From IMG/VR virus record IMGVR_UViG_3300008954_000002, positions 97,099-161,098 of that record: a DNA stretch of 64,000 nucleotides. One strand, 5' to 3'. The notes under the pieces are model-generated. The model was not told the origin of the DNA, made no database searches, and saw only the letters and a program-made list of their open reading frames with translations. A program made the position numbers and the translations under genes. This stretch comes from a virus. Positions 9,631 to 64,000 of this stretch are shown piece after piece. How positions within the stretch are numbered: the stretch's first letter is position 1; each line of letters starts with the position of its first letter.

Positions 9631-9635
9631 AATAA

Positions 9636-26123: not shown

Positions 26124-29100
26124 TAGTCACCCATCAGTCTGTCAATATAGTTAGGAGTCAGTGGTCTCCTAGTGTCATTAATTCGTATTGAGCCAGAACC
26201 TCTAATGCCTGCAAGAAAATCCATAGAAGCTCTTACTCCACTAGTAGAGGGTACCTCACCTCTAATTTGATAAGCGTTTTGTCTTGAGAAATAAGTTTCT
26301 CCAGTGTTTACAGGCCTATGCATCATATCATTGTGTGGTCCCCCACCCAAGCTTTCTGGGGTGGGCATGTTGTCTTCTCTTGGTGCAAACAGCTCTCCTC
26401 TTCGTATAGCTGTTGCTACTCCAGAGTCCATTACTTCACCAGCAGACAACATTGGAGTAGGTGAATATCCTTCACTTCCCATAACTCCTTTAAGTGCTAA
26501 AGTAATACCTACACCTGCAGCTACGGGACCAAGGAATCGTTTGTCTAGCTTCTGTGTAGCGCTTGTAATGCGATTAGTGGTTGCAGCTATCTCATCCATG
26601 GTGCCTGCAAGACCAGTAGTAGTCTCAAGGGCAAGTCCTGCTTCCATAGCATGTCTTTGTTCGACCTGAAGAGCAAAGGCTCTCCGTGTTGCAGCTTTCT
26701 CACCTTTGAACATTTGGGCATTCTGATAGGCAGTCCCACTAAATTCTGCACCTGTCTCGTGTACATAGCGCGCAGCCATACGGCCAGACTCAACTAAGGA
26801 GCCAACACTAACCGCTCTGCCTTCTTGCAGCAGTGACTTGTTGAGCTGCTGCATTATTTTGGCTTCTTCTCCGGTACCGCCCAGCCCCCCCAGTTGCTGG
26901 GCTAGCATATCTTTATTGAAGCCAGTAATTCTAAGACCTTCCTTCGTATTTATGGCTGAGCCTTCAAAGATGTCTTCTAGAACTTTCTGGTACTTAAGTG
27001 AGCCTGCTTCAGATCCACCAGTTCGGATCATCTCATTAGTAGCTTCAATAAGATCTCCTGCCATATTTTTATAATGTGCATGGTGTTTGGCTTTGATTGC
27101 TACAATCTCTTCTATAGCAGTAAGACCAGCTAGCCCCTGCTGGGCAGCACTATATCCCATCTCTGCAGAAGTTTGTACTGTCCCCAACCTAAGCTTGTTA
27201 AGCGCCACATCAATTCTGCCAATGTCTTTAGCAGTAGCTTCTTTCATAACCTCATGATAGCGAGCTTCTTGAGGTGAGAGCTCACCTAATGCGCTTACTT
27301 CCATTTGAGCAGTCTTCTTGATAACTTCTGAAGCCTCCTCCATGATAGCGCCTACTTCAGCCCTATACCTAAGGGCTTCATTTGAAAACATCTCTTTTGC
27401 TGCAGAGGATTTCTGGAAGTAACCACTAGTGCCTTTCTTTGCAGAGGGAAAGAACAGCTGATAGTTATCGCCATCAAAGTCACCAATCATTCCAGCAGCA
27501 AAACTAAGGTTTAGCTTTATGCCCTTCTTCCTGTTGTTGTAGTGGACATCTACTTCAAAGTTGGGAATATAAACCTTGCCTCCGCCCTCTGTCGGTGCCA
27601 AAGCACTTATGTTTCTAGCCATGCTCTGGAAGAAGTCACCCATTGCTCCCCCTGCCTTCCGTCTAAGCCCTTTCTCTGTGCCAGGAAGCGCCATCCGTCT
27701 CATCTCTTGGAAGCTAGATGGCCTCCTACCTGTAGCAGCCTCAAACCTAGCAAGAGCAGCTTTACCTTCTGGAGTGCCTCTAGTGAACTTGCCAAACATT
27801 ACATCCGCCCGACCTGTTTCAGGTGCATATCTGAATGTCTGGGCAGGGGCTACATGCCCTGGGCCAAGCACTGGATCTCGACCTAGGATAGTTTCAGTTC
27901 CCTCTGTAAGTCTCGCTTCCATTCCAAGGAAGTAAGACTGGAATCGAGATCCCATTTCTTCCATGGCAGCACCCTTAGCTTTCCCACCTGTCATACCTAC
28001 CGCCTCATAAGAAGCAGTAGCTCCACCCATGTATCCACGCATTGAATCTAGAAAGCGTTGTGTATCGGCAAAAACCGCACTGCCACTAGAGCGCTTAAAA
28101 GCAAGCTGGGTCCGTGACAACTGTGCCTTGGTAAGCTCAGTGGTTGGAAATTCACCTGCTATCTGAAGACTAGCACCCAACCCATAGGAAGAGCCTCTAA
28201 GCTTTCCTCTTAGGACACTATTGTAAGTATTCCCAAATAGCTCACTAATGCCTGCCTTCCATTCGCGCAGTAAGTCGGCGTTTGCACCCGCGTCCACAGA
28301 CTGCCTAATGGTATTCAAGTTGTCGGATAGAAGATGTATCTTTCGTGTGTACTCCCCATGTATTGGCTTTGGTCCCTCAGCAGTTTTAATTTCAACACCC
28401 CTCATAAGTGCCATAGTGTTACCGCCAGCAATTCTAATTTGTCGAGTTCCAAGTGCAGCTTCTGCAGCTCTTCCTGTCTTATCTCTTACTCCACCAAGGT
28501 CAAGTATAAAGCCTTCCTTATGCTGTGCAAGCAATTCGGTCATGGCTCGTGTATCACGCGATCCTTCGAGAAAGGCGTCTACGCCTATAGTAGTAAGCTT
28601 TTGGGATGCTTTATATCCAGCAACTACTCCCTCTCGTCCACTAAGCGTGAGCTGCATCTTGGAAAGATCCTGAACAATCTTCAAGTGTTCAGCTGCTCCT
28701 CTTTTACGAGCAAGAACCATAGCCATAAAGTCGTTGGCCTCATTAGCGGGCATTCCGAGATTAGCTACTTGATGCTGAAGGAACTGGTAATAGCGCGGCT
28801 CTATAGAAGACTCTGCTGATCGAAGTATCTGAGAAAGTGGACCTGGAGTAATAGTATCAGCACCAAGAGCTGTTCCTCTCTTAGCTGATGCGATAATTTT
28901 CCCAGCAAGAGGCCCTGCTTCTCCTTTGATAAGGTTAGCCACTGCTGTCTGTGCTTCACCCTTTGCACCAAACCCATATAAGTCTGCGTGCTTGTAAAGC
29001 CCAGCCATAACCATGCCCATCTGCCCGGTTCTTGCTTCTGCATTAGGCAGTGCAAGCATTTTCTTCAAGGTAAGGCTTGCCATGTTCTCAAGATAAGCCC

Positions 29101-31390
29101 GGTCTCTAGCTACCTTTGACATGCCCTTATAGGCTGCGTCAGGGAGAGCGTCCTTATCCTTATTAATGGTGTTGAATAAACTATTCCAAGTTTTGTCTTT
29201 TGTTCCATAGCCCGCCATGAGACCCATACCGGTAACCATCTGTCTAGCTACTGCTCCTGAACCCTTCTTGAGCATGCCTCCACCAGAGAGCATTGTCTGT
29301 TCTGCTCCAAGCCCCAGCGCTTGGACCTCGCTAAGAACCCCGGCTCTACCCAGCATCTCGCGTTGCATTTCCGGTGTCATTCCCTTAGTAAAAGATTTTG
29401 TAAGTGTCGAGAAGGCTTTGGCAGAACTCGTATCTATAACTACGCTGCCACCAAAATGAATCCTAGGTGTACCCATAACATTAGAGGCACTCTCAAATGC
29501 AAGATTAAGCTCTTGCATGCCTGTGTAATGTGCAAGCTCTGCTCCTTGCCCTATCTGAGAAAGAGTATTGCCGTACTTGCCAAAGAACTTAGCTATCTCT
29601 TTCTCACCACTCACACTAATCTTACCTGCTCCAGAAGACCAAGCAGTCTGTCCTTCAAGAAGCTCATTGAGCAGCTGGGTAGATGGAAGATCCAATGCCG
29701 CAACGTCCAGTACAGACTTCTGTATTGCTTGCCTAACTCTTGCCTTGCCTCCAAGCCAAGCTTCACCTGGCCCAAGAGAAAAGACATTCTTACCACTAAG
29801 ATCCATGACGATAGCTTTATTCATACCACCTGTTAGACCATTAGACCACCCTACGTTTTGGCCAAACTGCTGAAAGGTTCTTGATGAGCCGAGTGTACTT
29901 TCTACTGGATTTGCAGGCTGGACAAACATGCCTTCCCTACCAGTAACCTGCCTAATACGCATTGTTGCTGGTAGTGTACCTCGATCTGTTAATCCAAGTG
30001 GTGTAATTTGGCTTAGAGGACTGTTGGCACCTAGTCCAATTCGCGTCCAAGAGCCTCCGCCGGGAAGCCGCTTTACTTCATGGCTGCCACCAATATCAAA
30101 AAGACCTCCCTCTGCATACGCAAAATACTTTCTAAGCTCAGTCTGTGCCTTTAGATCAAGAGCGTCCCACCCAGCGATAGTCATGCTTGAATGACTAATA
30201 GCTTGTTGTGCTAACAGGTGCCCCCTCATAGGAGAAGAACCCGGTATTGATACAGCCCTGCTTTGCGATGTGCCAAAGCTCCGTTGGAATTTGCCAACAG
30301 TATCTGCATTAATCTTGCTTGCATTGCCGCCAACAGCTTTCAGTCTATTGAGAAAGTCATTGGCAAAGAAATCAGTTACACTCCCGATGGCACCTGCCTT
30401 CTTAAGGCGACCGATACTATTTTGATCCCAGACTGCTGCACCAGGAGCACCCGTCTTTCTAAATTCGTTTAACAGCTTTGTTGCATCTGCAAATAAAATA
30501 TCAGCACTATACTGTGCAGTACTTTGAGCACCTACTCTAAAAACAGGAACGCCACTTGGGCTGTTCAGGCTTAGAGGTATGCTTGCTCTGAAGGTACTAC
30601 GGTTGCGCCCCTTGTTATATATGTGGGCATAAAGATCATCTCCTTGCCCCTGCATAATCCTGACCTCGCCAGTGCCCCTCATTGCTTTCTCAAATTGCCC
30701 CTTCCATGCTGCTATCTTGGGAGATAGTTCTCCTGAGAACTCAGTGAAATTAGGGTTGAGTCCTCTTAGATTATACGTAGGAGCCTGTAGCTGCTCTCGC
30801 ATTCCTTGGTTTCTACCCAGCAAACGATGGAATGTAGCTTGGGCTTCTGGAGTGCCACTCTCTAAAACCGTATTCACAGTACTCTGTACTATTTTGGCTG
30901 CATCCTCAGTAAGCTGAGCCTCTCCATTTCGCATAAGCTCTATCAATTTGCTTTTAATATCTTGAGCTTTTGCTGTAGAAATACCTGAAGTAGCATCATC
31001 AACAGCTTCAACAATTGTACTCAGAATTGCATTGCGAGATTCAACGCCTTCACCAAGCATTCTTGTAATGCTATCCTTGGAGGGGTTAATTAAATCTTCA
31101 GCAAACTTCTGAAACTTTACTTGGTTAATCTCCTCTCTAGCTGCACGCGCTCTTTTTAGGGAATTCCCGATACTGGCATTAGAGTCTCTAAACCCATGTG
31201 TCTTAAGCCCCAACAGAGAGCCAGGCGTATTACTCTTGAGCGCAGCAACCCCTACACCAACACCTACTGCTATAGGTGCTACACCAACAACTTGCTCAAT
31301 AAAATTGCGACTAGTATCGCCAACCTCCTGAGTGCTGAAATCTGTTCTTTGGGATTTGCCAAACAATCTAAGAAGAGGGTCAATTGCCAC
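26123..31390 (-). CDS. Putative single-chain two-barrel (DPBB) DNA-dependent RNA polymerase, probably virion-associated (1755 aa)
   Basis: DFDGD at aa 1304-1308 (nt 27467-27481) within KGIKLNLSFAAGMIGDFDGDNYQLFFP, colinear with beta' [27 protein letters not shown]. Upstream TILGRDPVL resembles beta' VLLNRAPTL. Candidate lysine pair K658/K665. GTG start with GGAG SD. Confidence 0.7.
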   Translation of the reverse strand: MAIDPLLRLFGKSQRTDFSTQEVGDTSRNFIEQVVGVAPIAVGVGVGVAALKSNTPGSLLGLKTHGFRDSNASIGNSLKRARAAREEINQVKFQKFAEDLINPSKDSITRMLGEGVESRNAILSTIVEAVDDATSGISTAKAQDIKSKLIELMRNGEAQLTEDAAKIVQSTVNTVLESGTPEAQATFHRLLGRNQGMREQLQAPTYNLRGLNPNFTEFSGELSPKIAAWKGQFEKAMRGTGEVRIMQGQGDDLYAHIYNKGRNRSTFRASIPLSLNSPSGVPVFRVGAQSTAQYSADILFADATKLLNEFRKTGAPGAAVWDQNSIGRLKKAGAIGSVTDFFANDFLNRLKAVGGNASKINADTVGKFQRSFGTSQSRAVSIPGSSPMRGHLLAQQAISHSSMTIAGWDALDLKAQTELRKYFAYAEGGLFDIGGSHEVKRLPGGGSWTRIGLGANSPLSQITPLGLTDRGTLPATMRIRQVTGREGMFVQPANPVESTLGSSRTFQQFGQNVGWSNGLTGGMNKAIVMDLSGKNVFSLGPGEAWLGGKARVRQAIQKSVLDVAALDLPSTQLLNELLEGQTAWSSGAGKISVSGEKEIAKFFGKYGNTLSQIGQGAELAHYTGMQELNLAFESASNVMGTPRIHFGGSVVIDTSSAKAFSTLTKSFTKGMTPEMQREMLGRAGVLSEVQALGLGAEQTMLSGGGMLKKGSGAVARQMVTGMGLMAGYGTKDKTWNSLFNTINKDKDALPDAAYKGMSKVARDRAYLENMASLTLKKMLALPNAEARTGQMGMVMAGLYKHADLYGFGAKGEAQTAVANLIKGEAGPLAGKIIASAKRGTALGADTITPGPLSQILRSAESSIEPRYYQFLQHQVANLGMPANEANDFMAMVLARKRGAAEHLKIVQDLSKMQLTLSGREGVVAGYKASQKLTTIGVDAFLEGSRDTRAMTELLAQHKEGFILDLGGVRDKTGRAAEAALGTRQIRIAGGNTMALMRGVEIKTAEGPKPIHGEYTRKIHLLSDNLNTIRQSVDAGANADLLREWKAGISELFGNTYNSVLRGKLRGSSYGLGASLQIAGEFPTTELTKAQLSRTQLAFKRSSGSAVFADTQRFLDSMRGYMGGATASYEAVGMTGGKAKGAAMEEMGSRFQSYFLGMEARLTEGTETILGRDPVLGPGHVAPAQTFRYAPETGRADVMFGKFTRGTPEGKAALARFEAATGRRPSSFQEMRRMALPGTEKGLRRKAGGAMGDFFQSMARNISALAPTEGGGKVYIPNFEVDVHYNNRKKGIKLNLSFAAGMIGDFDGDNYQLFFPSAKKGTSGYFQKSSAAKEMFSNEALRYRAEVGAIMEEASEVIKKTAQMEVSALGELSPQEARYHEVMKEATAKDIGRIDVALNKLRLGTVQTSAEMGYSAAQQGLAGLTAIEEIVAIKAKHHAHYKNMAGDLIEATNEMIRTGGSEAGSLKYQKVLEDIFEGSAINTKEGLRITGFNKDMLAQQLGGLGGTGEEAKIMQQLNKSLLQEGRAVSVGSLVESGRMAARYVHETGAEFSGTAYQNAQMFKGEKAATRRAFALQVEQRHAMEAGLALETTTGLAGTMDEIAATTNRITSATQKLDKRFLGPVAAGVGITLALKGVMGSEGYSPTPMLSAGEVMDSGVATAIRRGELFAPREDNMPTPESLGGGPHNDMMHRPVNTGETYFSRQNAYQIRGEVPSTSGVRASMDFLAGIRGSGSIRINDTRRPLTPNYIDRLMGD

Positions 31391-31405: not shown

Positions 31406-34400
31406 TTACATAGCTCTAGCGAGTAAACTTAGTATATCTGATTCTCTTGAATCATTATAGTGCAGTTGGGCTTGAGTCTGCCCACCCCAATAGCCATGCA
31501 CACTCATATCTCTAGAGCCTCGCTGGTGCTCAGACCTAGGCAAGTTATACATAAGCTCTCCTATGGAGTCTCTATGAAGGGGATGATCTTGGTAGAGGAA
31601 ATCAGTTGAGCCTTCTAGGTAGGGCTTGCGAGCGAGCATTCTCACATCCCTTTGCCAGCCACCATACTCATGAACATCTCTACCAAGATCATCCGTATAT
31701 TTGATCTTGATATCTCTTAAATCTACATCTGCATTATGCCCTATCCAGTCTTCGGAAGGCAAAGGCTTATCATAGAAATATCCTTGCAGCTCATTAAAAC
31801 GACTCGCTAAGTAAGCTTCATTAACCTGTGTTGCAGAGCCTGCATGCAACCCAGGATCGCCCCTATCCATTCTTTCCCATACTGTCTGATAGAGGTGGGC
31901 CTGATCCGTAGGAACCATTTCAAGGATTCTTTGCCTATCTTCTCCCTGTGCAAAAGTGAATGCATCATAAAACTTCTTTTCTCCCTCTGGCATTGCTGCA
32001 TAGATGCCAAGCGGATTACCTTGAGGGTTGACACCAAAGCGAGTTTGCTGAGCCCTATAAAGGGCCTGACGCTTCTCATTGCCCTGAGACTTTTGAGCAA
32101 TTGTCATCCACTTCATAAACTCTAGCTTGTCAAAATACTCATCGGTCTGACGCGTCTCTTCTACATGACCGGGGATTCCCCTATAGCCCATAAGATTAGC
32201 AGCCTGATAAGCAGCTGGCCTAAACCAGTCACGTACTGGCTTGTCCCAAAACGCCATATTCGTGCCGTACAAATTTGTCCTTTCATATTCCTCTATAGCG
32301 TCTCTATTCCCCATCAGCTTAGACATAGGTCTAAAGCCGAAAGGCATCATATACTCAGCGGGTTCAACAATAGCTCTAAGCGATCTTTGTCCAACATGCC
32401 AAGCAGCTTGTGTAGCTTCAGAAAGCAGTGGAACTTCAATTGCGTTATCATGAGTTGGTAAGAAACCGTCACCGATTAGCTTCTTATTAAGTCTTGTATC
32501 AATAAGATCAATGAAGTCGTTTGTATTCCTGCCTGTCAATCCAGCGGCACGAGCTTTATATATCTGAGCTCTTGTGGTTCTAAACTCAGGTGACCAATCT
32601 GCCACATCAGCTAGGATGGCATATCGATAAGCTATTGGATACTTTTCAGGATCAACTCCACGCAGCTCTGGATGTATAGCTTGGTACCCAGCCCCAGGCA
32701 ATCTTACATCAGCATCAGGAATAGTTCTGTACGGATCACCCATCTTGTACCTTTGGGGCAACCATGAAGGCATGGTATTTAAGATAGGATTATATTCGTC
32801 AACCTCTGGTCTTATTCTAGGCAGAAAGCGCCTTGCAAGCTCTGAGGTAAAGAAGGCACCCCCCAAGTCCATACCCCAGAAGGCCTCTCTAAGATCGGTA
32901 ATGGAACTTGCACTAGACAATACAGAGCGCTGACTGAAGAATGTCTCTGAGCCAGTCAGCTTCTTTGTTATCACATTGGAAAGAAATCCTGTTAATCCTT
33001 CCATCTCTCTAAAGCGATAACTTGATGCACCTGCTACAAAGCCAGGCGTATATGGGGACATTGGCTTGCCTGGCGTTAGCCCGCCAAGCTCATAGTTAGG
33101 ACCCTTATACTCAGGGGCATGAGCGAACTCTAACTGGTCTCCTTGGCCTGTACGAACCCAGTCTGGGACATGCATGAGTTTGGGCGGCTTAATAACTCGT
33201 CCAATAGTTGCCGCTAGAGCAGGCCCAATCATTGGGACGTCTTCAAATGCACTACCCGTAATTGTATGGGGCCTATTCCAATAGTTTCTTCTCTCAAGCT
33301 CATAAGTAAAGTTCTTTCGTAAGAACTTCCCAAGAGGACTAATGCTGTCTTCATCCTCTCCCCAGCGTGCTCTCTCTGAAGCCCTGCTTCTCCAAAGAGC
33401 AAACCGGTGAGGTCTCATATACTTTGTTTCACCTCCCTCAATATCTCCACCACCACCTTCCCAGAACCGACTTGCTCTTACTTCAATCTGTTGCTTCCCA
33501 GAGTATATGTCCATGAGATCGCTGGGGTTCTCTAGGCTGCCAATACCACCAGTAGTAAGCAATCTGTGAGCTGCTGCGCCGGCGGCAAACAATACTCCTA
33601 AGCGACCGATACGAGGCTTAAATCCAGTCTCCTCAAAAAGTCTTGTAAGATACTCTTGACCTACAAGCTCCTTGCTTAAATTTGCTCCAAAGAACCCGTG
33701 CATGGCACGGCTGCTAAATGATTCTGCGACTCTCGCTGCTCTAGCTACAAAACCTGTCCTTCCAGAATAGTGTTTGTCTATCCGTTTTAACGATTGCTGT
33801 AGGGAAGCATTGAGTGGGTTATTTTCAAGAAAGGCTTTATCTTGTGCAGTAGCTCCACTTCGTTCAAGCTGGAGCCTATCCATAAGAGCACCCCATCGCC
33901 CTTGTTCTTTGGCAGACTTCTGCATAGCAAAGAACAGCCGATTTCTTCTAACTGTTTTGGGTAGCTTGCCCTCCATGATTTGATTAGCTTTTTCTGCAGA
34001 GACATAGCCTTCATTAATTGCTACATTATGGACACTGCTCCAATACCTATCTCTAGCAGAGAGGCCAACAATTCCAGCACCCTTGACACTGCTTGCTTCT
34101 AGTGCAGCCTTTTGGAAACCAATCCTGCCATCAAGAATTCCACTTAGTCGGAAGGGTTCCTGTCCATACCTTTCAACAAGATGTGCAGGCAAACCTAAAT
34201 ACCCAGCAGCAGCCAATGATAAGCCGGCAAAGGCACTAGTCTTCCAATCGGTTATCCCTGGGGCAAAACCCTCCAGTGTCCTTCGGTATATATTAAGCCC
34301 AGTAAATTTCCCAACGGCAGCTAGACCTACTTGGCCAGTTGCCCAAGTATCAGCAATACCTTGTCCAGTACCCTTGTCAAAACCAGGCAATAGCATTTGC

Positions 34401-35569
34401 CCAAAGAAAGCACCTACGCCTACCATCATGGAGGCGCGCTGACTTCCTCCAAACTTCTTAGTAAGTGCAGCGGCACCTGCTGCCATTCCTCCTGACACAA
34501 GTGCATGCCCAGGAAGTCCACCCTGCCTTCTTATCCAGTCTAGCTGCTTAACAGCCAGAATAGCACCACCAACCTGTGCCCCCTTAATGCCAAACCGTGT
34601 AAACATCTCCATGCCTGTTCCAGGACGAACAGCAAGTGACATTCCAAGATGCTTTTCAAACGATTGTGCTACACCACCTAAGAGTGGCAGCTGATCCATC
34701 GTTGTTCCAATAAGCCTATTAAGTCTTTGAGCTCCAAAAGCATAGAGCGATCTGAAATAAGTACTTCTATTAGATAGATCAGAAAGGTTTCGTAGCGGAC
34801 CTCCAACTGAAGGCATTGGCATGAAGCGAGAAATCTCTCCAGATACCGAGTCAGAGAATACTCTTCTAAATTGGTTAGGAGACCACTCTTTAAAAAACCC
34901 GCCAGCCTGCAGAACCGATTGGTAAGCAGGAGTCATCTTGGGTTGCTTGAGGCCTACTTGTGCAGCTTGGGCAACGTCTTTAGCTGATACTGGAGTAGTC
35001 TCAAATAAAGAAGCAGCGCTGGATACTAGTTCCCAAAGGCCTTTAGTTCCTTTGCGTGCAAAAAGACTACCTCTAGCGGCTGAGCGGGCATCTCTCTCAA
35101 AGAGGAGCTCGAACCCTTCGTCGCCAAACCCTCTGTTGATGCCTAACTTGTCAAAAGTCTCCCCACCAAAGAACTTCCTAACAACTTGCTCTGTCTCACC
35201 AGCGCCAAGAACATCTTTGCCCCAGTGCACTCCAACTACATCTCTAGTTAAGAGCTTACCTCCTGGCCCCATAAACTGTTGAGCAGCATACTTCTTAGCT
35301 CCCTGCATCCCCGAAGATACAAAGGGCGACATCCATTCGGCAGCACCAAAGGTATTGCCAAAACTCCATGGGGTGCTAGACGCAGCATGTCTTACTATTC
35401 TTTGAAGATCATCAATAACTCGACCGCCACTAGTAAGCGGACGTGTAGTTGCATAAAGCCCAGCTCCACCTAAGGCAGCGGTGATAGCAAGATTGAAAGC
35501 TCTCCCTGAGGGGGGATTCCACGGAGTGGCTTCCTCAGAAGTCCACCTATGCCCAGGGTGATAAGCCAC
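31406..35569 (-). CDS. Tape-measure-like / ejected virion protein (1387 aa)
   Basis: First long ORF after the tube and chaperone genes. Helical, Gly/Ala-rich and basic, with several hydrophobic segments (e.g. LAITAALGGAGLYA, ASMMVGVGAFFGQMLL, AFAGLSLAAAGYLGL). Confidence 0.55.
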   Translation of the reverse strand: MAYHPGHRWTSEEATPWNPPSGRAFNLAITAALGGAGLYATTRPLTSGGRVIDDLQRIVRHAASSTPWSFGNTFGAAEWMSPFVSSGMQGAKKYAAQQFMGPGGKLLTRDVVGVHWGKDVLGAGETEQVVRKFFGGETFDKLGINRGFGDEGFELLFERDARSAARGSLFARKGTKGLWELVSSAASLFETTPVSAKDVAQAAQVGLKQPKMTPAYQSVLQAGGFFKEWSPNQFRRVFSDSVSGEISRFMPMPSVGGPLRNLSDLSNRSTYFRSLYAFGAQRLNRLIGTTMDQLPLLGGVAQSFEKHLGMSLAVRPGTGMEMFTRFGIKGAQVGGAILAVKQLDWIRRQGGLPGHALVSGGMAAGAAALTKKFGGSQRASMMVGVGAFFGQMLLPGFDKGTGQGIADTWATGQVGLAAVGKFTGLNIYRRTLEGFAPGITDWKTSAFAGLSLAAAGYLGLPAHLVERYGQEPFRLSGILDGRIGFQKAALEASSVKGAGIVGLSARDRYWSSVHNVAINEGYVSAEKANQIMEGKLPKTVRRNRLFFAMQKSAKEQGRWGALMDRLQLERSGATAQDKAFLENNPLNASLQQSLKRIDKHYSGRTGFVARAARVAESFSSRAMHGFFGANLSKELVGQEYLTRLFEETGFKPRIGRLGVLFAAGAAAHRLLTTGGIGSLENPSDLMDIYSGKQQIEVRASRFWEGGGGDIEGGETKYMRPHRFALWRSRASERARWGEDEDSISPLGKFLRKNFTYELERRNYWNRPHTITGSAFEDVPMIGPALAATIGRVIKPPKLMHVPDWVRTGQGDQLEFAHAPEYKGPNYELGGLTPGKPMSPYTPGFVAGASSYRFREMEGLTGFLSNVITKKLTGSETFFSQRSVLSSASSITDLREAFWGMDLGGAFFTSELARRFLPRIRPEVDEYNPILNTMPSWLPQRYKMGDPYRTIPDADVRLPGAGYQAIHPELRGVDPEKYPIAYRYAILADVADWSPEFRTTRAQIYKARAAGLTGRNTNDFIDLIDTRLNKKLIGDGFLPTHDNAIEVPLLSEATQAAWHVGQRSLRAIVEPAEYMMPFGFRPMSKLMGNRDAIEEYERTNLYGTNMAFWDKPVRDWFRPAAYQAANLMGYRGIPGHVEETRQTDEYFDKLEFMKWMTIAQKSQGNEKRQALYRAQQTRFGVNPQGNPLGIYAAMPEGEKKFYDAFTFAQGEDRQRILEMVPTDQAHLYQTVWERMDRGDPGLHAGSATQVNEAYLASRFNELQGYFYDKPLPSEDWIGHNADVDLRDIKIKYTDDLGRDVHEYGGWQRDVRMLARKPYLEGSTDFLYQDHPLHRDSIGELMYNLPRSEHQRGSRDMSVHGYWGGQTQAQLHYNDSRESDILSLLARAM

Positions 35570-58384: not shown

Positions 58385-61300
58385 CTACATCCTGTGGTGA
58401 CCAATCGGGCTGTTAAACATCTGATGGTTCTGGTGCCTTTGACCAGCAGCCATCTTGCTTCTAAGATTTCTTCTACGTACCCCATACATTTCATATGCTT
58501 CTAACTTGCGCTTACCCCACATACTGTTGGTAGTGCTAAGCTGATCCAATGACATAGATTTATCATAGTTGCCATACCCAGTGCCACTACTTAGCTTTCT
58601 GTCATAAGTGCTACCATGAGTCGATGTAAGTGAACCAGTGTCTTGAAGTAACTGTTCCATGTAGGTTGTGTGTGGGGCTTTTGGCGCATAGTGCATAGGC
58701 ATTGAACTTCTAGCATCGTCACTAAAGCCAAGCTTGCCTATTCTTGCTCCAATCTCTGCAGCAGCTATGCTATCTGCAGTGCTATAGAAACCCTGTGCTT
58801 GTGCGTTCATCATCAGTGCGCCACCTGACATGGTGGCGCTATTCTTTACTAGTTTATTTGTATTGGCAAAGGTTGCCCACGTAATTCTGCTACCAGCTGC
58901 ATCGGTAACATCATAAGCAGCTTGGAAGAAAGGCTCAGACCACATACCTGCTTGAGCACCATGGGCAGTCTTCTCAATTCTACCAAGAGAATGGTAATCA
59001 ATCATTGGCTCAGTACCCTTCTTATAGAAAGGAAGTGCCCCAGCCATACCACGCCTAACTAACTCAAAGTTAAGGTTCTGCCCATCACCAATGACGGCAC
59101 CTACCATACGGCCATAGGTTACATTCGTAGGATCAAAGACAAGATCAAGCTTACCTGTCTTGCCTATCATGGCTTCTAAAGCTACTCTTGCAGCCTCGCC
59201 CTTAGGCTGGCTTTGCATAGAGGAGCCCTTAAGATTAAATATACCATTGCCGTGTACTATTTCAGGAGCATCAATACCTGCAAGGCGGAAGCTGAATCCC
59301 CTGTTGGCCCCAAAGAAACTTGCTATTGCACCACGTATACCACCCCGCTGAACAACAATAGTGTCAGCATCTTCTACTTTTACCTTCCAGTTTCCTTCAG
59401 ACAAACTTACTTTCTGGAGACCAGCTCCCTGTAACCCTGCATAGTTGGATGGATCTGCTCTTTGAACATCTTGTGTCAAGAAGGAATGTCCCGACGTATT
59501 GACCCCAAGCGAAGGCCATATCTGTTGCACCTTACCAAAGAGACCATTCACAGGATCGTAATGCTTAGCACCAAAAGAAGAACGCAAGTATTTCTCCCTT
59601 GCATCTAGAAGCTCTTGTTGCTCAAACACATGACTAGAATATACAGGCCCTCTATAAGGAGATCCAAAATCAGTAAATGCTCTCTTGCCCATAGCTGCGA
59701 TACCAGTAGGAGACATCCCTGCTCGCTTTGTCTTCCTAGGATCTCTAGTTCCGTAAAACTCTCCTTGTCCCTCAAGCCATACTTGGTAGTTCATGGTGCG
59801 GAGAGATTCAGGACCTCCTCGCTGATGTCTTGGACCATTCTTAATAACATCCATAACGCCAAGCGCACCCATTCCTGCAGCAAAGGCTGCTAGTGTTCTT
59901 CCCCCACTAGGAATCTTAGCCAATCGCTCAGTCATACTGCTTGTTCTACCTAGCCCTACCCTCTTTAGAGCAGAGGGGAGCTTGGGCAGCTCATGCATAC
60001 CATGCTGTCCTAAAAACTTAGTTATAGCTTTATCGTCTTGTGTGAGTATCTGCTTAATATAGTTATGCTCTAGATCTCTTCCGTGCCGGCTTAGATATTG
60101 GGCACTTAGGTTCTGCAGCGCATCGGCGCTTGCGACCTCCACACCATGCGCCCCCTCTCTAAGTCCTCCGCCTTTAGAAAGAGCATCAATCATAGACCTT
60201 GATACATCATCTATGTCTGTGTGCGTATATCTGCCAGAAGCTTTTATATCTTCTACTATATCTGCAATATCATAGATGGGTCTGGTTTGTGCTGCTTGCC
60301 TTGTTACATGCTCTGTCTCGCCTGCTCTAGACACAAGCTCTAGTGGAACAGCTTTGCGCACACCAGTTGTGCGGTGTGCTACCCCTTCTGTTGCAAGATC
60401 CTGAAAGGCTCTATCAAGTTGCTGGATAACCTGAGCCTTCTCTCCCTGCTTGTATAAGATATCTTGTAGAGCTTGGTACCTTACTTCCTTGGCTAGTGGC
60501 CCCGTGCCACCCTTCTCATACATGCGAATGAGTGCTCTACCATGCTCAGTACCTTCTGCTATATGCTGCAGATCTGCAGTTCTGGCAACAGCATTTCTTA
60601 AGATAGAGGCCTCTGTAATGGCATCTTCTAAAGACCTGTGCCATTCTCTTGCTCCAAAAGCCTTTGCTGCTGCACGGCCCTCTAGTTCTGTAGCCCCAAA
60701 AAGCCTAGCAGCAATATCCATTGAGGACCCATATCTGCCAGCAGGCATAGTAGACAAGCCTAGCTCTACTGCATATGACTGTCGTGCCTTTAATACATCG
60801 ATTATATCTCGTACATCGCCTGCACCCGTATGCTTTAGATATGCTTTCCAGACAGGCTTCCAATCCCCAGTAACACTTGCTTCTGCTCTAGCTGCTATTG
60901 CTTCAGGCCCAGTGACGTAAGTAGGAGCAGACGATAAGGGATTTCTCCACGGCAAAGCGGCTAGCATAGGGTGGGTTTGCCTTACCTTACGTATGGCTTG
61001 TTTCTCATTCATTCCCTCGGCAACAAGCTTGTCTATTAGGGGCTGCTGTTCAGCAGAGATGTGAGCCCCAATCTGAGCCGCTTCAAAATTGGCATTAGCT
61101 ATCCATGTAACATTCTGGCTCATCTTTTTAACTAGTTCAGAATCGGCAGAGAGTACACGCTCTAAAGTAGTGAGTTCAGTCTTGTAGCTTGCTAGTTTAG
61201 AACCAAAGGCCTGTAAGTCTAAGATACGCTGTTCTCTACTTACTCCCGGCGTCCCTCGGTTAAGCATATCTCCAAGAGGACCTTCTGGAGTAGTAAGCTG

Positions 61301-61723
61301 GTCATAGATCCACTTATCTTTCTGCTTGATACTCTCTAACGCCCCGGCAAGCCTACCCTCAGGCACATCCTTGAAAGCTCTCCTTAGCTGTTCAGCTGCT
61401 TCCTTGCCTCTACCGCCTGTAGTAGAGCCCTTAAGCATAAGTGCTTTAGCTACAACAACATCATCCCATGTAGCTGCCTTTCCTAGGAACTTAAGCCCAG
61501 GGTGGAATACGTGCTTGTCTGTAGCAGTGCTAGAAAGCTGTGTAAGATCTTGAGCCCTGTTACTCTTGCCCAAGATCATATTGGGAGCTATCTTCCACTC
61601 AGTAGCTTCCTGTGTAGCTAAGCTATACAGGGCCATCTCTACGGTACCAGAACCCTCTCTAAGCCCTAGGGTCTCAATATCAAGAATTAATGCATTCTGT
61701 AGTAACGAATGGTGTGAAGGCAT
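58385..61723 (-). CDS. Multidomain protein (1112 aa): N-terminal DEDDh (DnaQ-like) exonuclease plus C-terminal staphylococcal nuclease (SNase) domain
   Basis: ExoI LILDIETLG (D15/E17), ExoII-like ANANFE (E214), VRDIIDV, and ExoIII HRSLEDA (H362/D367). SNase motifs VEDADTI, FRLAGIDAPE, YGRMVG, NFELVRRGMA and AGMW at about nt 58930-59390. Confidence 0.75.
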   Translation of the reverse strand: MPSHHSLLQNALILDIETLGLREGSGTVEMALYSLATQEATEWKIAPNMILGKSNRAQDLTQLSSTATDKHVFHPGLKFLGKAATWDDVVVAKALMLKGSTTGGRGKEAAEQLRRAFKDVPEGRLAGALESIKQKDKWIYDQLTTPEGPLGDMLNRGTPGVSREQRILDLQAFGSKLASYKTELTTLERVLSADSELVKKMSQNVTWIANANFEAAQIGAHISAEQQPLIDKLVAEGMNEKQAIRKVRQTHPMLAALPWRNPLSSAPTYVTGPEAIAARAEASVTGDWKPVWKAYLKHTGAGDVRDIIDVLKARQSYAVELGLSTMPAGRYGSSMDIAARLFGATELEGRAAAKAFGAREWHRSLEDAITEASILRNAVARTADLQHIAEGTEHGRALIRMYEKGGTGPLAKEVRYQALQDILYKQGEKAQVIQQLDRAFQDLATEGVAHRTTGVRKAVPLELVSRAGETEHVTRQAAQTRPIYDIADIVEDIKASGRYTHTDIDDVSRSMIDALSKGGGLREGAHGVEVASADALQNLSAQYLSRHGRDLEHNYIKQILTQDDKAITKFLGQHGMHELPKLPSALKRVGLGRTSSMTERLAKIPSGGRTLAAFAAGMGALGVMDVIKNGPRHQRGGPESLRTMNYQVWLEGQGEFYGTRDPRKTKRAGMSPTGIAAMGKRAFTDFGSPYRGPVYSSHVFEQQELLDAREKYLRSSFGAKHYDPVNGLFGKVQQIWPSLGVNTSGHSFLTQDVQRADPSNYAGLQGAGLQKVSLSEGNWKVKVEDADTIVVQRGGIRGAIASFFGANRGFSFRLAGIDAPEIVHGNGIFNLKGSSMQSQPKGEAARVALEAMIGKTGKLDLVFDPTNVTYGRMVGAVIGDGQNLNFELVRRGMAGALPFYKKGTEPMIDYHSLGRIEKTAHGAQAGMWSEPFFQAAYDVTDAAGSRITWATFANTNKLVKNSATMSGGALMMNAQAQGFYSTADSIAAAEIGARIGKLGFSDDARSSMPMHYAPKAPHTTYMEQLLQDTGSLTSTHGSTYDRKLSSGTGYGNYDKSMSLDQLSTTNSMWGKRKLEAYEMYGVRRRNLRSKMAAGQRHQNHQMFNSPIGHHRM

Positions 61724-61728
61724 CTGCT

Positions 61729-62514
61729 CTAGTCGTCTAATAAGATTTCGTCGTCTTCTGCTATTAGCTCTACTTCTTCAACTTCTAACTGGCCCAATGC
61801 CTCCCGCAATTTAGTTATTTCAGCCAACACCCTACTCTCGTTACCAACTCCACCAACTTTAGCAGCCCAATCTGCTTTAGCTTTCCGCGTTTCCATAAGG
61901 TTGGTAAGCCATTTATCTCTCCTACGCTCAAGCTTTTCTAGAACTTCTAAAGCCGGGTGCAACTTAGCAACTTCTGCAGCCTGACCATTCTCATTAAACC
62001 CTATTATGTCTACCCGCATAAAGTCCCGGCCCTGCCCCCCTCTGTCTCCTACGCCTAAGATCATTAATGCTCTATTCTTATACAGGTCTAACAACGCCAA
62101 CTCATTAACAATAGACATCTCAATAGGGTTCTTAGGGTCTACATTGAGATGTTCCATATACTCAATAATCTTCTGTCTCATGTAGAACTTCTCTAAGATA
62201 CACTCTCTACCAATCGGATAGTCGGTGTCATTACCATATACTAAAGCCCCTGTTGTCTCATCTCTTTCAGGTATAGGGCACCTTTCTACAAACACACACT
62301 TTACAGGTCCAAGACACATGGTTGGAGCTACAGCGTGTAAGCCGTGACTCATACTGTGTACAGAGTTTCTTATTCTTAGTTGTTTATTGGGGGAAAGCCG
62401 GTCTAGATAGTTGACATAGTCTTCTTCTACTTCCGCTATTTCAGCTATTGCTTCTTCCTTAGTAGGTACTAAATCTAGCCCGACCTGCTTTGTATCTTTT
62501 TTAGACATAGCCAA
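61729..62514 (-). CDS. Putative terminase small subunit (about 260 aa; ATG at 62508 is an alternative start) with a Cys cluster
   Basis: Near the start of the packaging cluster. Helical, with HPALEVLEKLERRRDKWLTNLMETRKAK resembling P27-type TerS and a Cys motif MCLGPVKCVFVERC...REC. Confidence 0.5.
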   Translation of the reverse strand: MAMSKKDTKQVGLDLVPTKEEAIAEIAEVEEDYVNYLDRLSPNKQLRIRNSVHSMSHGLHAVAPTMCLGPVKCVFVERCPIPERDETTGALVYGNDTDYPIGRECILEKFYMRQKIIEYMEHLNVDPKNPIEMSIVNELALLDLYKNRALMILGVGDRGGQGRDFMRVDIIGFNENGQAAEVAKLHPALEVLEKLERRRDKWLTNLMETRKAKADWAAKVGGVGNESRVLAEITKLREALGQLEVEEVELIAEDDEILLDD

Positions 62515-62547
62515 TAGAAGTAAAAGTAAGGGGTAATGGGCCGCTGT

Positions 62548-62811
62548 TTAGGGAGTTAACTCAGTCTCTTTAGGGAGGGAGTTAAGCGCAGTGTCAATAG
62601 TATCTTTAAGTGATTCTAGATAGTTGCGAAGAGTTGCTTCTTCGCTCTCTCCGAATTGTTTAGTGACTATAGCATATCTACAGGAAGTGCCTAGTTCAGA
62701 TCTATCAACAAGATACTTGTAGCGGTAGTAGTGGAACTGTAGTAGTGATTCTACTTCTTGGTGAAGTGAATGTAGAGACGAGGAATAAGTATAGAGTAGA
62801 TCTTCTGTCAT
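62548..62811 (-). CDS. Hypothetical protein (87 aa), first gene of the minus-strand cluster
   Basis: ATG-initiated ORF on the operon strand with a weak SD. Confidence 0.45.
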   Translation of the reverse strand: MTEDLLYTYSSSLHSLHQEVESLLQFHYYRYKYLVDRSELGTSCRYAIVTKQFGESEEATLRNYLESLKDTIDTALNSLPKETELTP

Positions 62812-62884
62812 TCTAAGCCTTTAGAAAAGAAAGCAGTAGGTGGCCGGCTATATAGAGACTAAAATTAGTTGGAAAATATTTCTC

Positions 62885-62914
62885 ATAATACAAATTATAC
62901 ACTCTTGGTTTCAA
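62885..62914 (-). promoter_or_regulatory. Possible sigma70-like promoter upstream of the structural cluster
   Basis: The minus strand reads TTGAAA-N18-TATTAT, with a TATAAT inside the spacer, about 75 nt upstream of the 62811 ATG. Confidence 0.3.
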
Positions 62915-63028
62915 GGCCGGATCATAAATAGGAATAGCCGCGTCATATTCAGCTTCTAAGCAGGGGGTAGAGTTCTCTTAGGGAATAGGGCTGGGGAAAC
63001 TTGGGCGCGAGCTTGAGAGATGAATAAG

Positions 63029-63147
63029 AGACAAAATATATAGGAAGGTTGGGGGCGACACATCACACCCCTATAGGGAACAGTAGTACATATAGGAGAT
63101 GTGGGCCAGCATACGTATTTAGACAAGATATATAGGAGATTGTGGGG
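63029..63147 (+). repeat. Short direct repeats in the divergent non-coding region
   Basis: AGACAA(A/G)ATATATAGGA at 63029-63045 and 63121-63137. The ATATAGGA core plus a G-rich tail also occurs at 63090-63105. Palindrome CCCTATAGGG at 63069-63078. Confidence 0.7.
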
Positions 63148-63207
63148 TGGTTATAGTTAATAGTAGATCGGAACCTATTGTTCGGAGCCTACCGGGGTAA
63201 AGTATGC

Positions 63208-63245
63208 TTTTTTATTTTAATGGTGTTCAATGGAGGACACCATTA
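63208..63245 (+). promoter_or_regulatory. Cassette leader 1: T-rich motif plus hairpin
   Basis: TTTTTTATTTTAATGG, then the stem TAATGGTGTTC (63218-63228) / GGACACCATTA (63235-63245). Confidence 0.55.
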
Positions 63246-63262
63246 CCCGTCAAGGAGGCGGT

Positions 63263-63346
63263 ATGTACTATAGGTACTATGGAGCCATCCAACTCCTCAG
63301 GCTTAGTGCCTGGGGAGTTGTGGTGATCACCCTGCTTGTTGTGTGA
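63263..63346 (+). CDS. Small hydrophobic peptide, 27 aa (MYYRYYGAIQLLRLSAWGVVVITLLVV); not in the ORF track
   Basis: AAGGAGG SD at 63252-63258, ATG at 63263, TGA at 63344-63346, followed by a terminator. Confidence 0.6.
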   Translation: MYYRYYGAIQLLRLSAWGVVVITLLVV

Positions 63347-63362
63347 GCAACAAGCAGGGTTT

Positions 63363-63404
63363 GAGAGGAGGCTTAGTCGTAAGGCTAGGTCTCCTCTCTT
63401 TTTT
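63363..63404 (+). terminator. Intrinsic terminator, cassette 1
   Basis: GAGAGGAGGCTTAGTC-GTAA-GGCTAGGTCTCCTCTC-TTTTTT: a 16-bp stem with G-U pairs and a GNRA loop. Confidence 0.85.
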
Positions 63405-63466
63405 AATGGCTAGCATACGTGTGAGATGTATGCGACCAAGACTCTTATTCCTGTGGAGGTAATACT

Positions 63467-63637
63467 ATGGGACTATATGAGTACTTTCTCTCCAAGGTGG
63501 AGGAGATGAGGGCGTCGGCCCTCCCTCCCCTCGGGGAGAGCCCCTCCAGTGAGGAACTGGAGGAGCTCACCTTTGAGGCCCTAGAGGTCACAGAGGTGAG
63601 CGCGCGGACACTTGTCGAAGTGGAGGAGCTTCGGTAG
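63467..63637 (+). CDS. Small acidic protein, 56 aa (MGLYEYFLSKVEEMRASALPPLGESPSSEELEELTFEALEVTEVSARTLVEVEELR); not in the ORF track
   Basis: GGAGGT SD at 63455-63460, ATG at 63467, TAG at 63635-63637. Flanked by a leader hairpin and a terminator. Confidence 0.7.
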   Translation: MGLYEYFLSKVEEMRASALPPLGESPSSEELEELTFEALEVTEVSARTLVEVEELR

Positions 63638-63648
63638 GTGTCCGCATT

Positions 63649-63685
63649 GGGGAGGACAGGTCTTAGGGCTTGTCCTCCCCTTTTT
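63649..63685 (+). terminator. Intrinsic terminator, cassette 2
   Basis: GGGGAGGACAGGTC-TTAG-GGCTTGTCCTCCCC-TTTTT. Confidence 0.85.
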
Positions 63686-63744
63686 ATTTCAGTGGTTAGC
63701 ATGTACCTGATGTATATGCGACCATTAACAATAAGGAGAATACC

Positions 63745-63840
63745 ATGACTATGGCAATCTTCTGCCTGTTCACATACGTGAACCTGGCAGTTGGATTCTC
63801 TCTTGGCGCGGTGATCGTCAAGAGAGATCTCGTAGGATAA
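63745..63840 (+). CDS. Small hydrophobic peptide, 31 aa (MTMAIFCLFTYVNLAVGFSLGAVIVKRDLVG); not in the ORF track
   Basis: TAAGGAG SD at 63732-63738, ATG at 63745, TAA at 63838-63840, followed by a terminator. Confidence 0.65.
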   Translation: MTMAIFCLFTYVNLAVGFSLGAVIVKRDLVG

Positions 63841-63848
63841 GTAGATAG

Positions 63849-63885
63849 GGAGCCTCTTACACTTCGGTGTAGGGGGCTCCTTTTT
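63849..63885 (+). terminator. Intrinsic terminator, cassette 3
   Basis: GGAGCCTCTTACAC-TTCG-GTGTAGGGGGCTCC-TTTTT with a cUUCGg tetraloop. Confidence 0.85.
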
Positions 63886-64000
63886 ATTTTAATGGCTAGT
63901 AGTAGCCAGTGTGCACCCGTTACCTGGGACAAAGGCGTAAGCCGGTATAGGGACGGTGTTGTAGGGTTTAAAGACCCAGTCCTATGTAGACGATCTATAG

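Follow-up and report, generated by a model that had tools for sequence, protein, structure and literature searches.

A head-to-tail array of T-tract leaders with downstream hairpins as candidate promoters for a tail-delivered RNA polymerase in an uncultured marine phage

We analysed the last 64,000 nucleotides (the window) of IMG/VR virus record IMGVR_UViG_3300008954_000002, a phage record of 161,098 bp in which the window covers positions 97099-161098. At the end of this window, short gene cassettes are each headed by a leader in which a T-tract runs into an ARTGG motif and a hairpin. The leader recurs as eight unique copies over ~6.1 kb, all on the plus strand and arranged head to tail. Sequence comparison and the analogy with Thermus phage P23-45 point to the leaders as probable promoters of an RNA polymerase (RNAP) delivered through the tail. 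Transcription would start (+1) at the invariant A of the leader or at the next purine, each promoter would be fused to the terminator of the preceding unit, and the resulting mRNAs would carry a hairpin at the 5' end. An earlier note on the window had proposed early promoters specific for a phage RNAP, with a 5' stem-loop acting at the RNA level, and the indirect tests that were run all favour this proposal. The sites lie on one strand and in one region, they are conserved down to 30% polymerase identity, and their hairpins are locked in position while the hairpin sequence is free. G.U mismatches outnumber A.C mismatches by 9 to 1, two phage RNAPs are apparently encoded while neither a sigma factor nor a sigma-70 promoter was found, and the leaders resemble the mapped virion-RNAP promoters of P23-45 in sequence and architecture.

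Eight leaders form a one-strand array across the record junction

The ends of the record overlap exactly over 119 bp, so the record is an assembled circle; since the window stops at the end of this circle, the array goes on at the record start (locus L004). Genes in window positions 1-62811 all lie on the minus strand and include those for terminase, portal, tail sheath, baseplate and three giant proteins. The coding strand switches at ~62.8-63.2 kb, and the array is the first plus-strand feature.

Direct reading placed the four leaders of the window where the earlier note had them, all on the plus strand. Leader 1 (63208-63223) reads TTTTTTATTTTA-ATGG (T6-A-T4-AATGG), leader 2 (63399-63409) has the short form TTTTTTA-ATGG (T6-AATGG), leader 3 (63681-63695) reads TTTTTATTTCA-GTGG (T5-A-T3-CAGTGG) and leader 4 (63881-63895) reads TTTTTATTTTA-ATGG (T5-A-T4-AATGG). 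The predicted +1 positions are A63219, A63405, A63691 and A63891, respectively. Owing to the 119-bp overlap, leader 4 and record positions 1-15 are the same sequence. The note had expected further copies next door, and the remaining four were found there, at record positions 1226, 1463, 1810 and 4763. Every copy follows the consensus C-TTTTTATTT-Y-A-R-TGG, in which the A after the pyrimidine tract is invariant. The core TTTYARTGG occurs four times in the window, all on the plus strand and inside 700 bp. A position weight matrix (PWM) from the eight genomic copies, which were chosen by rules that include the core, matched those eight sites alone in 2 x 161 kb; block shuffles scored with the same PWM gave a mean of 0.19 and a maximum of 2 matches.

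A unit is laid out as a GC-rich hairpin with T5-A-T3, then Y-A-R-T-G-G, a stem-loop of free sequence, a Shine-Dalgarno (SD) sequence and one gene. Seven of the eight leaders have a predicted GC-rich intrinsic terminator directly in front. Behind each of the eight stands a hairpin; the hairpin sequences are unrelated, but the 5' edge is fixed at R-T-G. The first three leaders are each followed, as the note had described, by an SD, a tiny open reading frame (ORF) and a strong terminator whose T-tract enters the next leader. Terminator 1 (63363-63398, +) has 16 pairs and a T-tract that continues into leader 2, terminator 2 (63649-63680, +) has 14 pairs, and terminator 3 (63847-63882, +) has a UUCG loop. 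These three predicted terminators have GC-rich stems of 14-16 pairs with the T-tract attached, the stems ending 7-11 nt 5' of the invariant A, and further ones lie in L004. The array is closed by a terminator at record 5210-5254 with a T5-A-T3 tail that lacks ARTGG.

The leader is conserved and its parts are separable in related phages

P0001, the 936-aa protein of unit 7, is the putative non-virion RNAP (nvRNAP) of this phage and lies behind the leader at record 1810. It has 16 homologues, all in marine assemblies, and the loci around eight of them were compared. Synteny is kept: terminase, a 294-aa protein, a ~1100-aa SNase-domain protein and a ~260-aa protein stand on one strand, and small genes with the nvRNAP gene stand on the opposite strand. 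In this genome and seven relatives (nvRNAP identity 30-61%, GC 46-54%), 50 non-redundant leader sites were collected by rules that include the core. The motif of the relatives is T-rich with TTTYA(A/G)(T/C)G(G/A) and occurs in many copies per locus. All 50 sites are on the sense strand, and the other strand gave 0 under the same rule. They lie between the structural/early divergence point and a place just past the nvRNAP gene, with three exceptions: L014 20895, L012 328 (upstream of the first leader) and L016 22967 (found in a looser scan). A leader always stands before the nvRNAP gene, at a spacing of 83-85 nt in five genomes, so the enzyme that reads it would have to be a polymerase present before phage gene expression.

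The first leader has no terminator stem in front, as the note had seen, and this holds in four relatives as well (L011, L012, L014 and L016), with the full T-tract and AAYG kept. A box is found ahead of it (TTCGGAGCCTACCGGGG, 63181-63197, +), which occurs before the first leader only and is unstructured; an alignment of five relatives kept it as GGAGCCYACCSSGG. Candidate roles of the box are an upstream promoter element or a signal of genome end or entry. RNAalifold found no conserved helix ahead of the first leader, a result on which the requirement of an upstream hairpin for each leader was dropped. In several units of L011 and L012, the terminator tail TTTTATTT and the core CTTTAATGG stand ~8 nt apart, and in this genome terminator-only sites (record 5246, 7569 and 9988) lack ARTGG. 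Together with the first leader, which has no terminator, these cases indicate that the parts are separable. Judged by this layout, the element is two overlapping signals, not one.

Position-locked hairpins are selected on the sense strand

The 5' hairpins of the window are located on the plus strand at 63219-63244 (10 pairs including 1 G.U, -12.3 kcal/mol), 63407-63438 (bulged, -12.1 kcal/mol), 63691-63726 (15 pairs including 3 G.U, -15.6 kcal/mol) and 63893-63908. They open at (A/R)TGG and close at CCA(T), with RNA minimum free energies of -7.2 to -15.6 kcal/mol. The TGG-to-CCA pairing that the note had drawn for each leader was recovered, including the bulged stem TAGCAT../..ATGCGA common to leaders 2 and 3. 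The eight hairpins of this genome have a mean of -10.4 kcal/mol.

Nearly all leader sites pair into a hairpin. These hairpins have 6-15 pairs and loops of 3-9 nt, are often bulged, and share no conserved stem or loop bases. Anchored hairpins averaged -8.3 kcal/mol, and dinucleotide-shuffled sequences gave -5.1 kcal/mol (p = 1.5e-9). The R, T and G of ARTGG are the most frequent places of the outermost stable pair, with a steep fall afterwards, and at 42 of the 50 sites a hairpin of at least 5 kcal/mol begins 0-3 nt 3' of the invariant A. Among 1x1 mismatches within Watson-Crick helices, nine are G.T and one is A.C, which indicates that the structure was selected on the sense strand, i.e. in RNA. 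A comparison of sense and antisense energies is biased by the choice of hairpins, and the count of mismatch types was relied on instead. Double compensatory changes separate related hairpins (window leader 2 versus L011 8569; record 4763 versus L012 9514), and a hairpin related to 5' hairpin 2 is present in L011 and L012 with compensatory changes.

Two divergent candidate RNA polymerases and a second motif class

The model of P0001 (motif GDDDGD) has a pLDDT of 86.9. Its structural matches were QDE-1 (E 2e-14), P74-26 gp62 (E 7e-9), plant RDR2 (E about 1e-8), PDB 8f72, titled 'Phage P32 gp64 - RNA polymerase' (E 1e-7), crAss gp66 (E 5e-4) and P23-45 gp96 (E 6e-4). By these matches of the model, P0001 is a two-barrel RNAP of the YonO/QDE-1 type; Pfam gave an RdRP match only below threshold (E = 0.0023).

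The candidate virion RNAP is a 1755-aa protein (26123-31390, -) encoded between the tail sheath and baseplate wedge genes. Its GDFDGD motif, near residue 1304, is invariant in a family of 12. When the core model was compared with 48,161 chains by VIA-align, the top nine matches were all second-largest RNAP subunits (Z 8.8-10.7), namely those of plastid, vaccinia, Pol I, African swine fever virus (ASFV), bacterial, Pol III, Pol IV, phiKZ and AR9 enzymes. The next segment of the core matched clamp regions of the largest (beta-prime) subunit. The beta/beta-prime-like order is given by VIA-align only, and on these model comparisons the protein appears to be a very divergent two-barrel RNAP in the tail module. 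Its neighbours on the minus strand are a 2962-aa protein that contains an M23 peptidase together with endolysin-like parts (17235-26123) and a 1387-aa protein of no family (31406-35569).

PHROGs gave nothing for either polymerase, and PDB sequence searches with P0001, its family profile and the family profile of the 1755-aa protein returned nothing meaningful. tblastn of both against 50,697 phage records gave no match, and hhalign between the two families detected no relation (probability 0.3). No sigma-70 r2/r4 domains were found in the genome. A search of the genome with PF00940 (T7-like RNAP) gave nothing, but control genomes equally gave nothing.

A second motif class on the plus strand consists of (C/T)ATAAATAAATA followed within ~2-20 nt by a hairpin with a CTTAC-type loop and a variable stem. 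It is found at record 5302, 7597, 9052, 14339 and 38111, the first of these directly past the array; the copy at 9052 stands directly behind a terminator tail (TTTTTATAAATAAATAAG). The equivalent at the same place in relatives is ATAAATAAATAA (L011 about 14660 and 17650; L009 about 13950). By its sequence and place, this class is a candidate promoter class of the QDE-1-like polymerase.

The array resembles the early region of Thermus phage P23-45

To our knowledge, P23-45 is the only studied phage with this pair of polymerases, of which the tail-delivered one starts a two-polymerase cascade. In that phage, the virion RNAP gp96 was linked to an AT-rich motif, and the nvRNAP gp64 to a GC-rich one, by ONT-cappable-seq and ChIP-seq (Chaban et al., Nat Commun 2024; PMC10770324). 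The mapped sites are primary, capped-enriched 5' ends (PMC10770324). Virion-RNAP promoters read TTATTCYTTTA, the final A being +1 (PMC10770324 Supplementary Data 1), and the motif precedes ORF77 to ORF59, including the nvRNAP gene ORF64 (PMC10770324). Termination sites (TTS) and start sites (TSS) come in pairs 6 nt apart (TTS1 340/TSS2 346; TTS8 3399/TSS11 3405; PMC10770324), so the terminator tail is inside the next promoter.

The likeness extends to several features. Both phages appear to carry a pair of very divergent two-barrel RNAPs, of which one is encoded in the tail module and the other, QDE-1/YonO-like, among the first genes, and both have small same-strand genes that diverge from the structural module. 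A T-rich motif that ends in A stands in both (TTATTCYTTTA as the mapped promoter in P23-45; TTTTTATTTYA as the candidate promoter here, where the start is predicted), with a TTTTATT core in common and a pyrimidine spacer 3 nt shorter here. The terminator tail overlaps the next promoter, here at the sequence level only, and the second polymerase has a separate motif class, assigned here by a candidate motif only. Intergenic sequences of P23-45 read hairpin-cTTTTATTCCTTT|ATG, and those of the array read hairpin-cTTTTTATTTYA|RTGG. The pre-early region of P23-45 (record 30000-62000; minus strand 5200-12200 of that stretch) is laid out like the array: it diverges from the terminase/structural module, holds small genes, and has spacers of 30-80 nt made up of a hairpin and a T-rich promoter. 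Among P23-45 relatives, motifs of the virion-RNAP class are confined to phages with the tail-module RNAP.

The two phages differ in other respects. In P23-45 the polymerase and the metallopeptidase tape measure form one 5002-aa protein, gp96, whereas here they are neighbouring genes, the RNAP gene being separate from that of the 2962-aa peptidase-bearing giant protein, and the tail is contractile. P23-45 mRNAs are leaderless from the A of ATG and the promoters have no hairpin; the units here have R-T-G-G after the +1, an obligatory 5' stem-loop, an SD and a leader of 30-85 nt. The predicted transcripts have leaders, which provide the place where a 5' hairpin fits. The second motif class is AT-rich with a hairpin here and GC-rich in P23-45. 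The promoters of P23-45 were mapped experimentally, and those here are predicted from sequence. The array would be of a known kind, the P23-45-type early promoters of a virion RNAP, to which it adds the obligatory 5' stem-loop and a broad family of uncultured marine phages.

A model of early transcription and the points against it

The pyrimidine tract and the invariant A would form a promoter for a polymerase that is there from the start of infection. The likeliest such enzyme is the 1755-aa two-barrel RNAP, which is encoded in the tail module and would be delivered with the DNA. An RNA started at the invariant A or at the purine after it would begin 0-3 nt before the stem-loop, and such a 5'-terminal hairpin may shield the short mRNAs from 5'-end-dependent decay. 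In E. coli, ompA mRNA is stabilised by a 5' hairpin that leaves very few 5' nucleotides unpaired, and in late promoters of the T7 group (phi10 leader) the conserved initiating nucleotides form the base of a 5'-terminal hairpin. Those cases involve another polymerase family and another promoter, whereas here the hairpin is in every unit and directly abuts the terminator. The upstream transcript would end in TTTTTAT, ~4-6 nt before the next start, and the T-tract would double as terminator tail and promoter. The nvRNAP made from unit 7 would then take over at the second motif class (ATAAATAAATA plus CTTAC-loop hairpin), which begins where the array ends.

Several results weigh against this model. 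The core model of the 1755-aa protein is modest (pLDDT 65, and below 50 in the DFDGD region), and Foldseek with it gave no match at E <= 0.001. That the protein is packaged in the virion is suggested only by its gene position and the analogy with P23-45. The sequence logos of the PWM and of the 50-site set are partly circular, as the selection rules include the core. Stems of terminators elsewhere than in the array (record 5246, 7569 and 9988) end in T5-A-T3 as well, so this part of the leader belongs to the terminator and not to a promoter. Between the A of TTA and the +1 there are 7 pyrimidines in P23-45 and 4 here, a spacing 3 nt shorter, and T-rich motifs can look alike by chance. Finally, the crAss-like phage phi14:2 has a giant virion-packaged two-barrel RNAP, gp66, with a DFDxD-type motif that transcribes the early genes (Drobysheva et al.; bioRxiv 10.1101/2020.03.07.982082), and no common motif was found upstream of the early transcripts made by that enzyme (bioRxiv 10.1101/2020.03.07.982082). 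Phage phi14:2 uses host RNAP for middle and late genes, whereas here a sharp motif is present and a second phage RNAP is encoded.

Jumbo phages of the phiKZ/AR9 type also have AT-rich, phage-specific early promoters, a virion-delivered two-barrel enzyme and many short early units (AR9: PMC5312081). Their enzymes are split multisubunit beta/beta-prime sets, and their motifs differ from those of the array. We know of no obligatory 5' hairpin or terminator overlap described for phiKZ/AR9 early promoters.

A more elaborate version of promoter action, in which the fusion of terminator and promoter is a hand-over device, seems rather doubtful. The few injected polymerases would release the RNA in TTTTTAT and restart 4-6 nt downstream on the same template, so that one injected molecule serves the eight cassettes in turn. 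Besides protecting the RNA, the hairpin at +1 to +3 would strip the nascent chain, drawing it off the template for a minimal, clamp-poor enzyme that lacks good RNA-displacement elements; in N4, host single-stranded DNA-binding protein (SSB) covers the RNA-displacement task. If this were true, Thermus siphoviruses and marine myoviruses alike would have kept the T-rich A-start promoter grammar as an ancient trait common to their tail-delivered two-barrel RNAPs.

Other explanations of the leaders

The leaders might be RNA processing junctions rather than promoters, at which a host RNase E-like enzyme cuts one or a few long early transcripts in the U-rich single strand between hairpins, leaving a 3' hairpin on the upstream piece and a 5' hairpin on the downstream piece. 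An AU-rich single strand between stable stem-loops fits such a cut, and sense-strand hairpins at a fixed distance from the U-tract would be expected from it too. The upstream hairpins, however, have the form of canonical intrinsic terminators, with 8-16 pairs, UUCG loops and the T-tract joined to the stem, and with eight such terminators in a row hardly any transcript would reach the nvRNAP gene. Nor is there a gene or hairpin upstream of the first leader. RNase E sites are far less sequence-specific than the A-R-T/C-G core, which is invariant across relatives at 30% polymerase identity. The analogous sites of P23-45, moreover, are primary, capped-enriched 5' ends. We consider processing unlikely.

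It is less probable still that the host RNAP reads the leaders first, as promoters of an unusual kind (-10-only or UP-rich), and that the phage polymerases come into play later. Most phages begin with the host enzyme, and TATTTT and TTTAAT look like a -10 hexamer. The note had found no evident -35/-10 pair, and our scan agreed: no sigma-70-like pair or other promoter-like site was detected on the plus strand in 61000-64000. The would-be -35 position falls in variable terminator stems, and the TTTCAG copies lack key -10 bases (the equivalents of A-11 and T-7). A sigma-70 promoter was rejected on the missing pair and the variable -35 position. Conservation is strongest at and after the predicted start and not in a hexamer at a fixed distance, and the motif is identical in relatives of 46 to 54% GC, probably with different hosts. 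The genome also encodes the putative tail-module RNAP, whose expected task is early transcription.

The note had offered a hairpin promoter of the N4 type as an alternative, in which the TGG...CCA repeat is extruded from supercoiled DNA and recognised by the injected polymerase. Coliphage N4 does likewise inject a polymerase, which transcribes a short stretch of early genes on one side of its genome from promoters with inverted repeats, and here too inverted repeats stand beside a conserved motif and early genes, and a virion RNAP is probable. In N4, the hairpin is upstream of +1, centred at -11 on the template strand, with conserved stem and loop bases, and is read by a T7-like enzyme (PMC4496689). 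The N4 promoters also need gyrase and SSB. The hairpin features do not hold for the array: the repeat is found downstream of the conserved motif, its stem and loop bases are not conserved, and it varies between 6 and 15 pairs with loops of 3-9 nt. The mismatches are biased to the sense strand (G.T 9 versus A.C 1), so a template-strand hairpin would carry C.A mismatches. The giant tail-module protein is apparently two-barrel and not T7-like, and the homologous promoters of P23-45 have no hairpin. This part of the note's proposal was given up as very improbable.

That the leaders are merely the long U-tracts of duplicated terminators with incidental downstream hairpins is hardly credible, for although T5-A-T3 also follows terminators outside the array and leaders 2 and 3 resemble duplicates, leader 1 has no terminator in five genomes, ARTGG is missing at terminator-only sites, the hairpins are position-locked and stronger than shuffles, and the core is separable from the tail.

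If the leaders are promoters of a tail-delivered RNAP, the array extends the logic of P23-45 to widespread uncultured marine phages of 150-190 kb with contractile tails (Tara Oceans and other marine assemblies). Because the candidate promoter is sharply delimited and comes with a predicted +1, a terminator and a 5' hairpin, it would provide templates for studying promoter recognition by minimal RNAPs, and the compact orthogonal terminator/promoter/5'-hairpin module is a possible part for synthetic biology. The motif could be used to annotate early regions, and the genome end that likely enters first, in related metagenomic phages.

Cassette contents and neighbouring features

The tiny ORFs are predicted to be coding by SD plus start codon only. 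Cassette 1 (63263-63346, +; SD AAGGAGG at 63252-63258) encodes 27 aa with a hydrophobic C-terminus, cassette 2 (63467-63637, +) an acidic product of 56 aa, and cassette 3 (63745-63840, +) a single hydrophobic helix of 31 aa. Unit 4 consists of a long ORF-poor conserved RNA followed by a 195-aa protein; units 5 and 6 encode a 43-aa peptide and an 87-aa Cys-rich protein, and the polymerase unit is followed by unit 8 with a 129-aa protein. The comparison of cassette content between relatives that the note had suggested was made across the eight related loci. Relatives share the nvRNAP, the 129-aa protein and a part of the 195-aa protein, and the tiny ORFs of cassettes 2, 3, 5 and 6 had no tblastn match in these loci. 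One homology block ends exactly at a leader TGG (own-region 5071-5213 versus L011 5715-5875, blastn), and another begins in the terminator ahead of leader 4 (blastn versus L011 and L012). These observations fit the note's further suggestion of gene-shuffling modules, with units as exchangeable cassettes that replace their tiny ORFs over time and retain polymerase, leaders and terminators, but two junctions are no proof of it.

The 129-aa protein that follows the QDE-1-like polymerase (L004:4814-5203, +) is kept in position in 6 of the 8 related loci at 27-51% identity, in contrast to the other small early proteins, and may be a cofactor of one of the polymerases.

Rfam at gathering threshold gave no family in the array, the sole matches being two tRNAs at L004 19.8 kb. 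The ORF-poor RNA after leader 4, likewise with no Rfam match, appears structured and is ~270-550 nt long; 5' hairpin 4 and its beginning occupy 63893-64000 (+), and it continues over the record end into L004. Its identity to L011 is 84%, versus 67-69% for coding DNA. RNAalifold with three genomes (window 63891-64000 plus L004:1-330, to about 570) gave 77 pairs, 10 of them with compensatory changes. A long-range helix joins 5' GGCTAST with the conserved AAGTAGCC ~260 nt downstream and competes with the local 5' hairpin.

In the divergent region 5' of leader 1 (63036-63147), ATATAGGAR..TGKGGG direct repeats occur three times, at 63038, 63090 and 63130. The full repeat has no other occurrence in the genome, and an ATATAWAGGA-like box is present at the equivalent place in L011, L012, L014 and L016. 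Possible roles of the repeats are those of an origin, of another promoter, or of a signal for packaging or entry. Next to the terminase-side genes lies the gene of a 1112-aa protein (58385-61723, -) that ends in a staphylococcal-nuclease domain; its position is kept in L011, L014 and L016, and it may be another injected protein.

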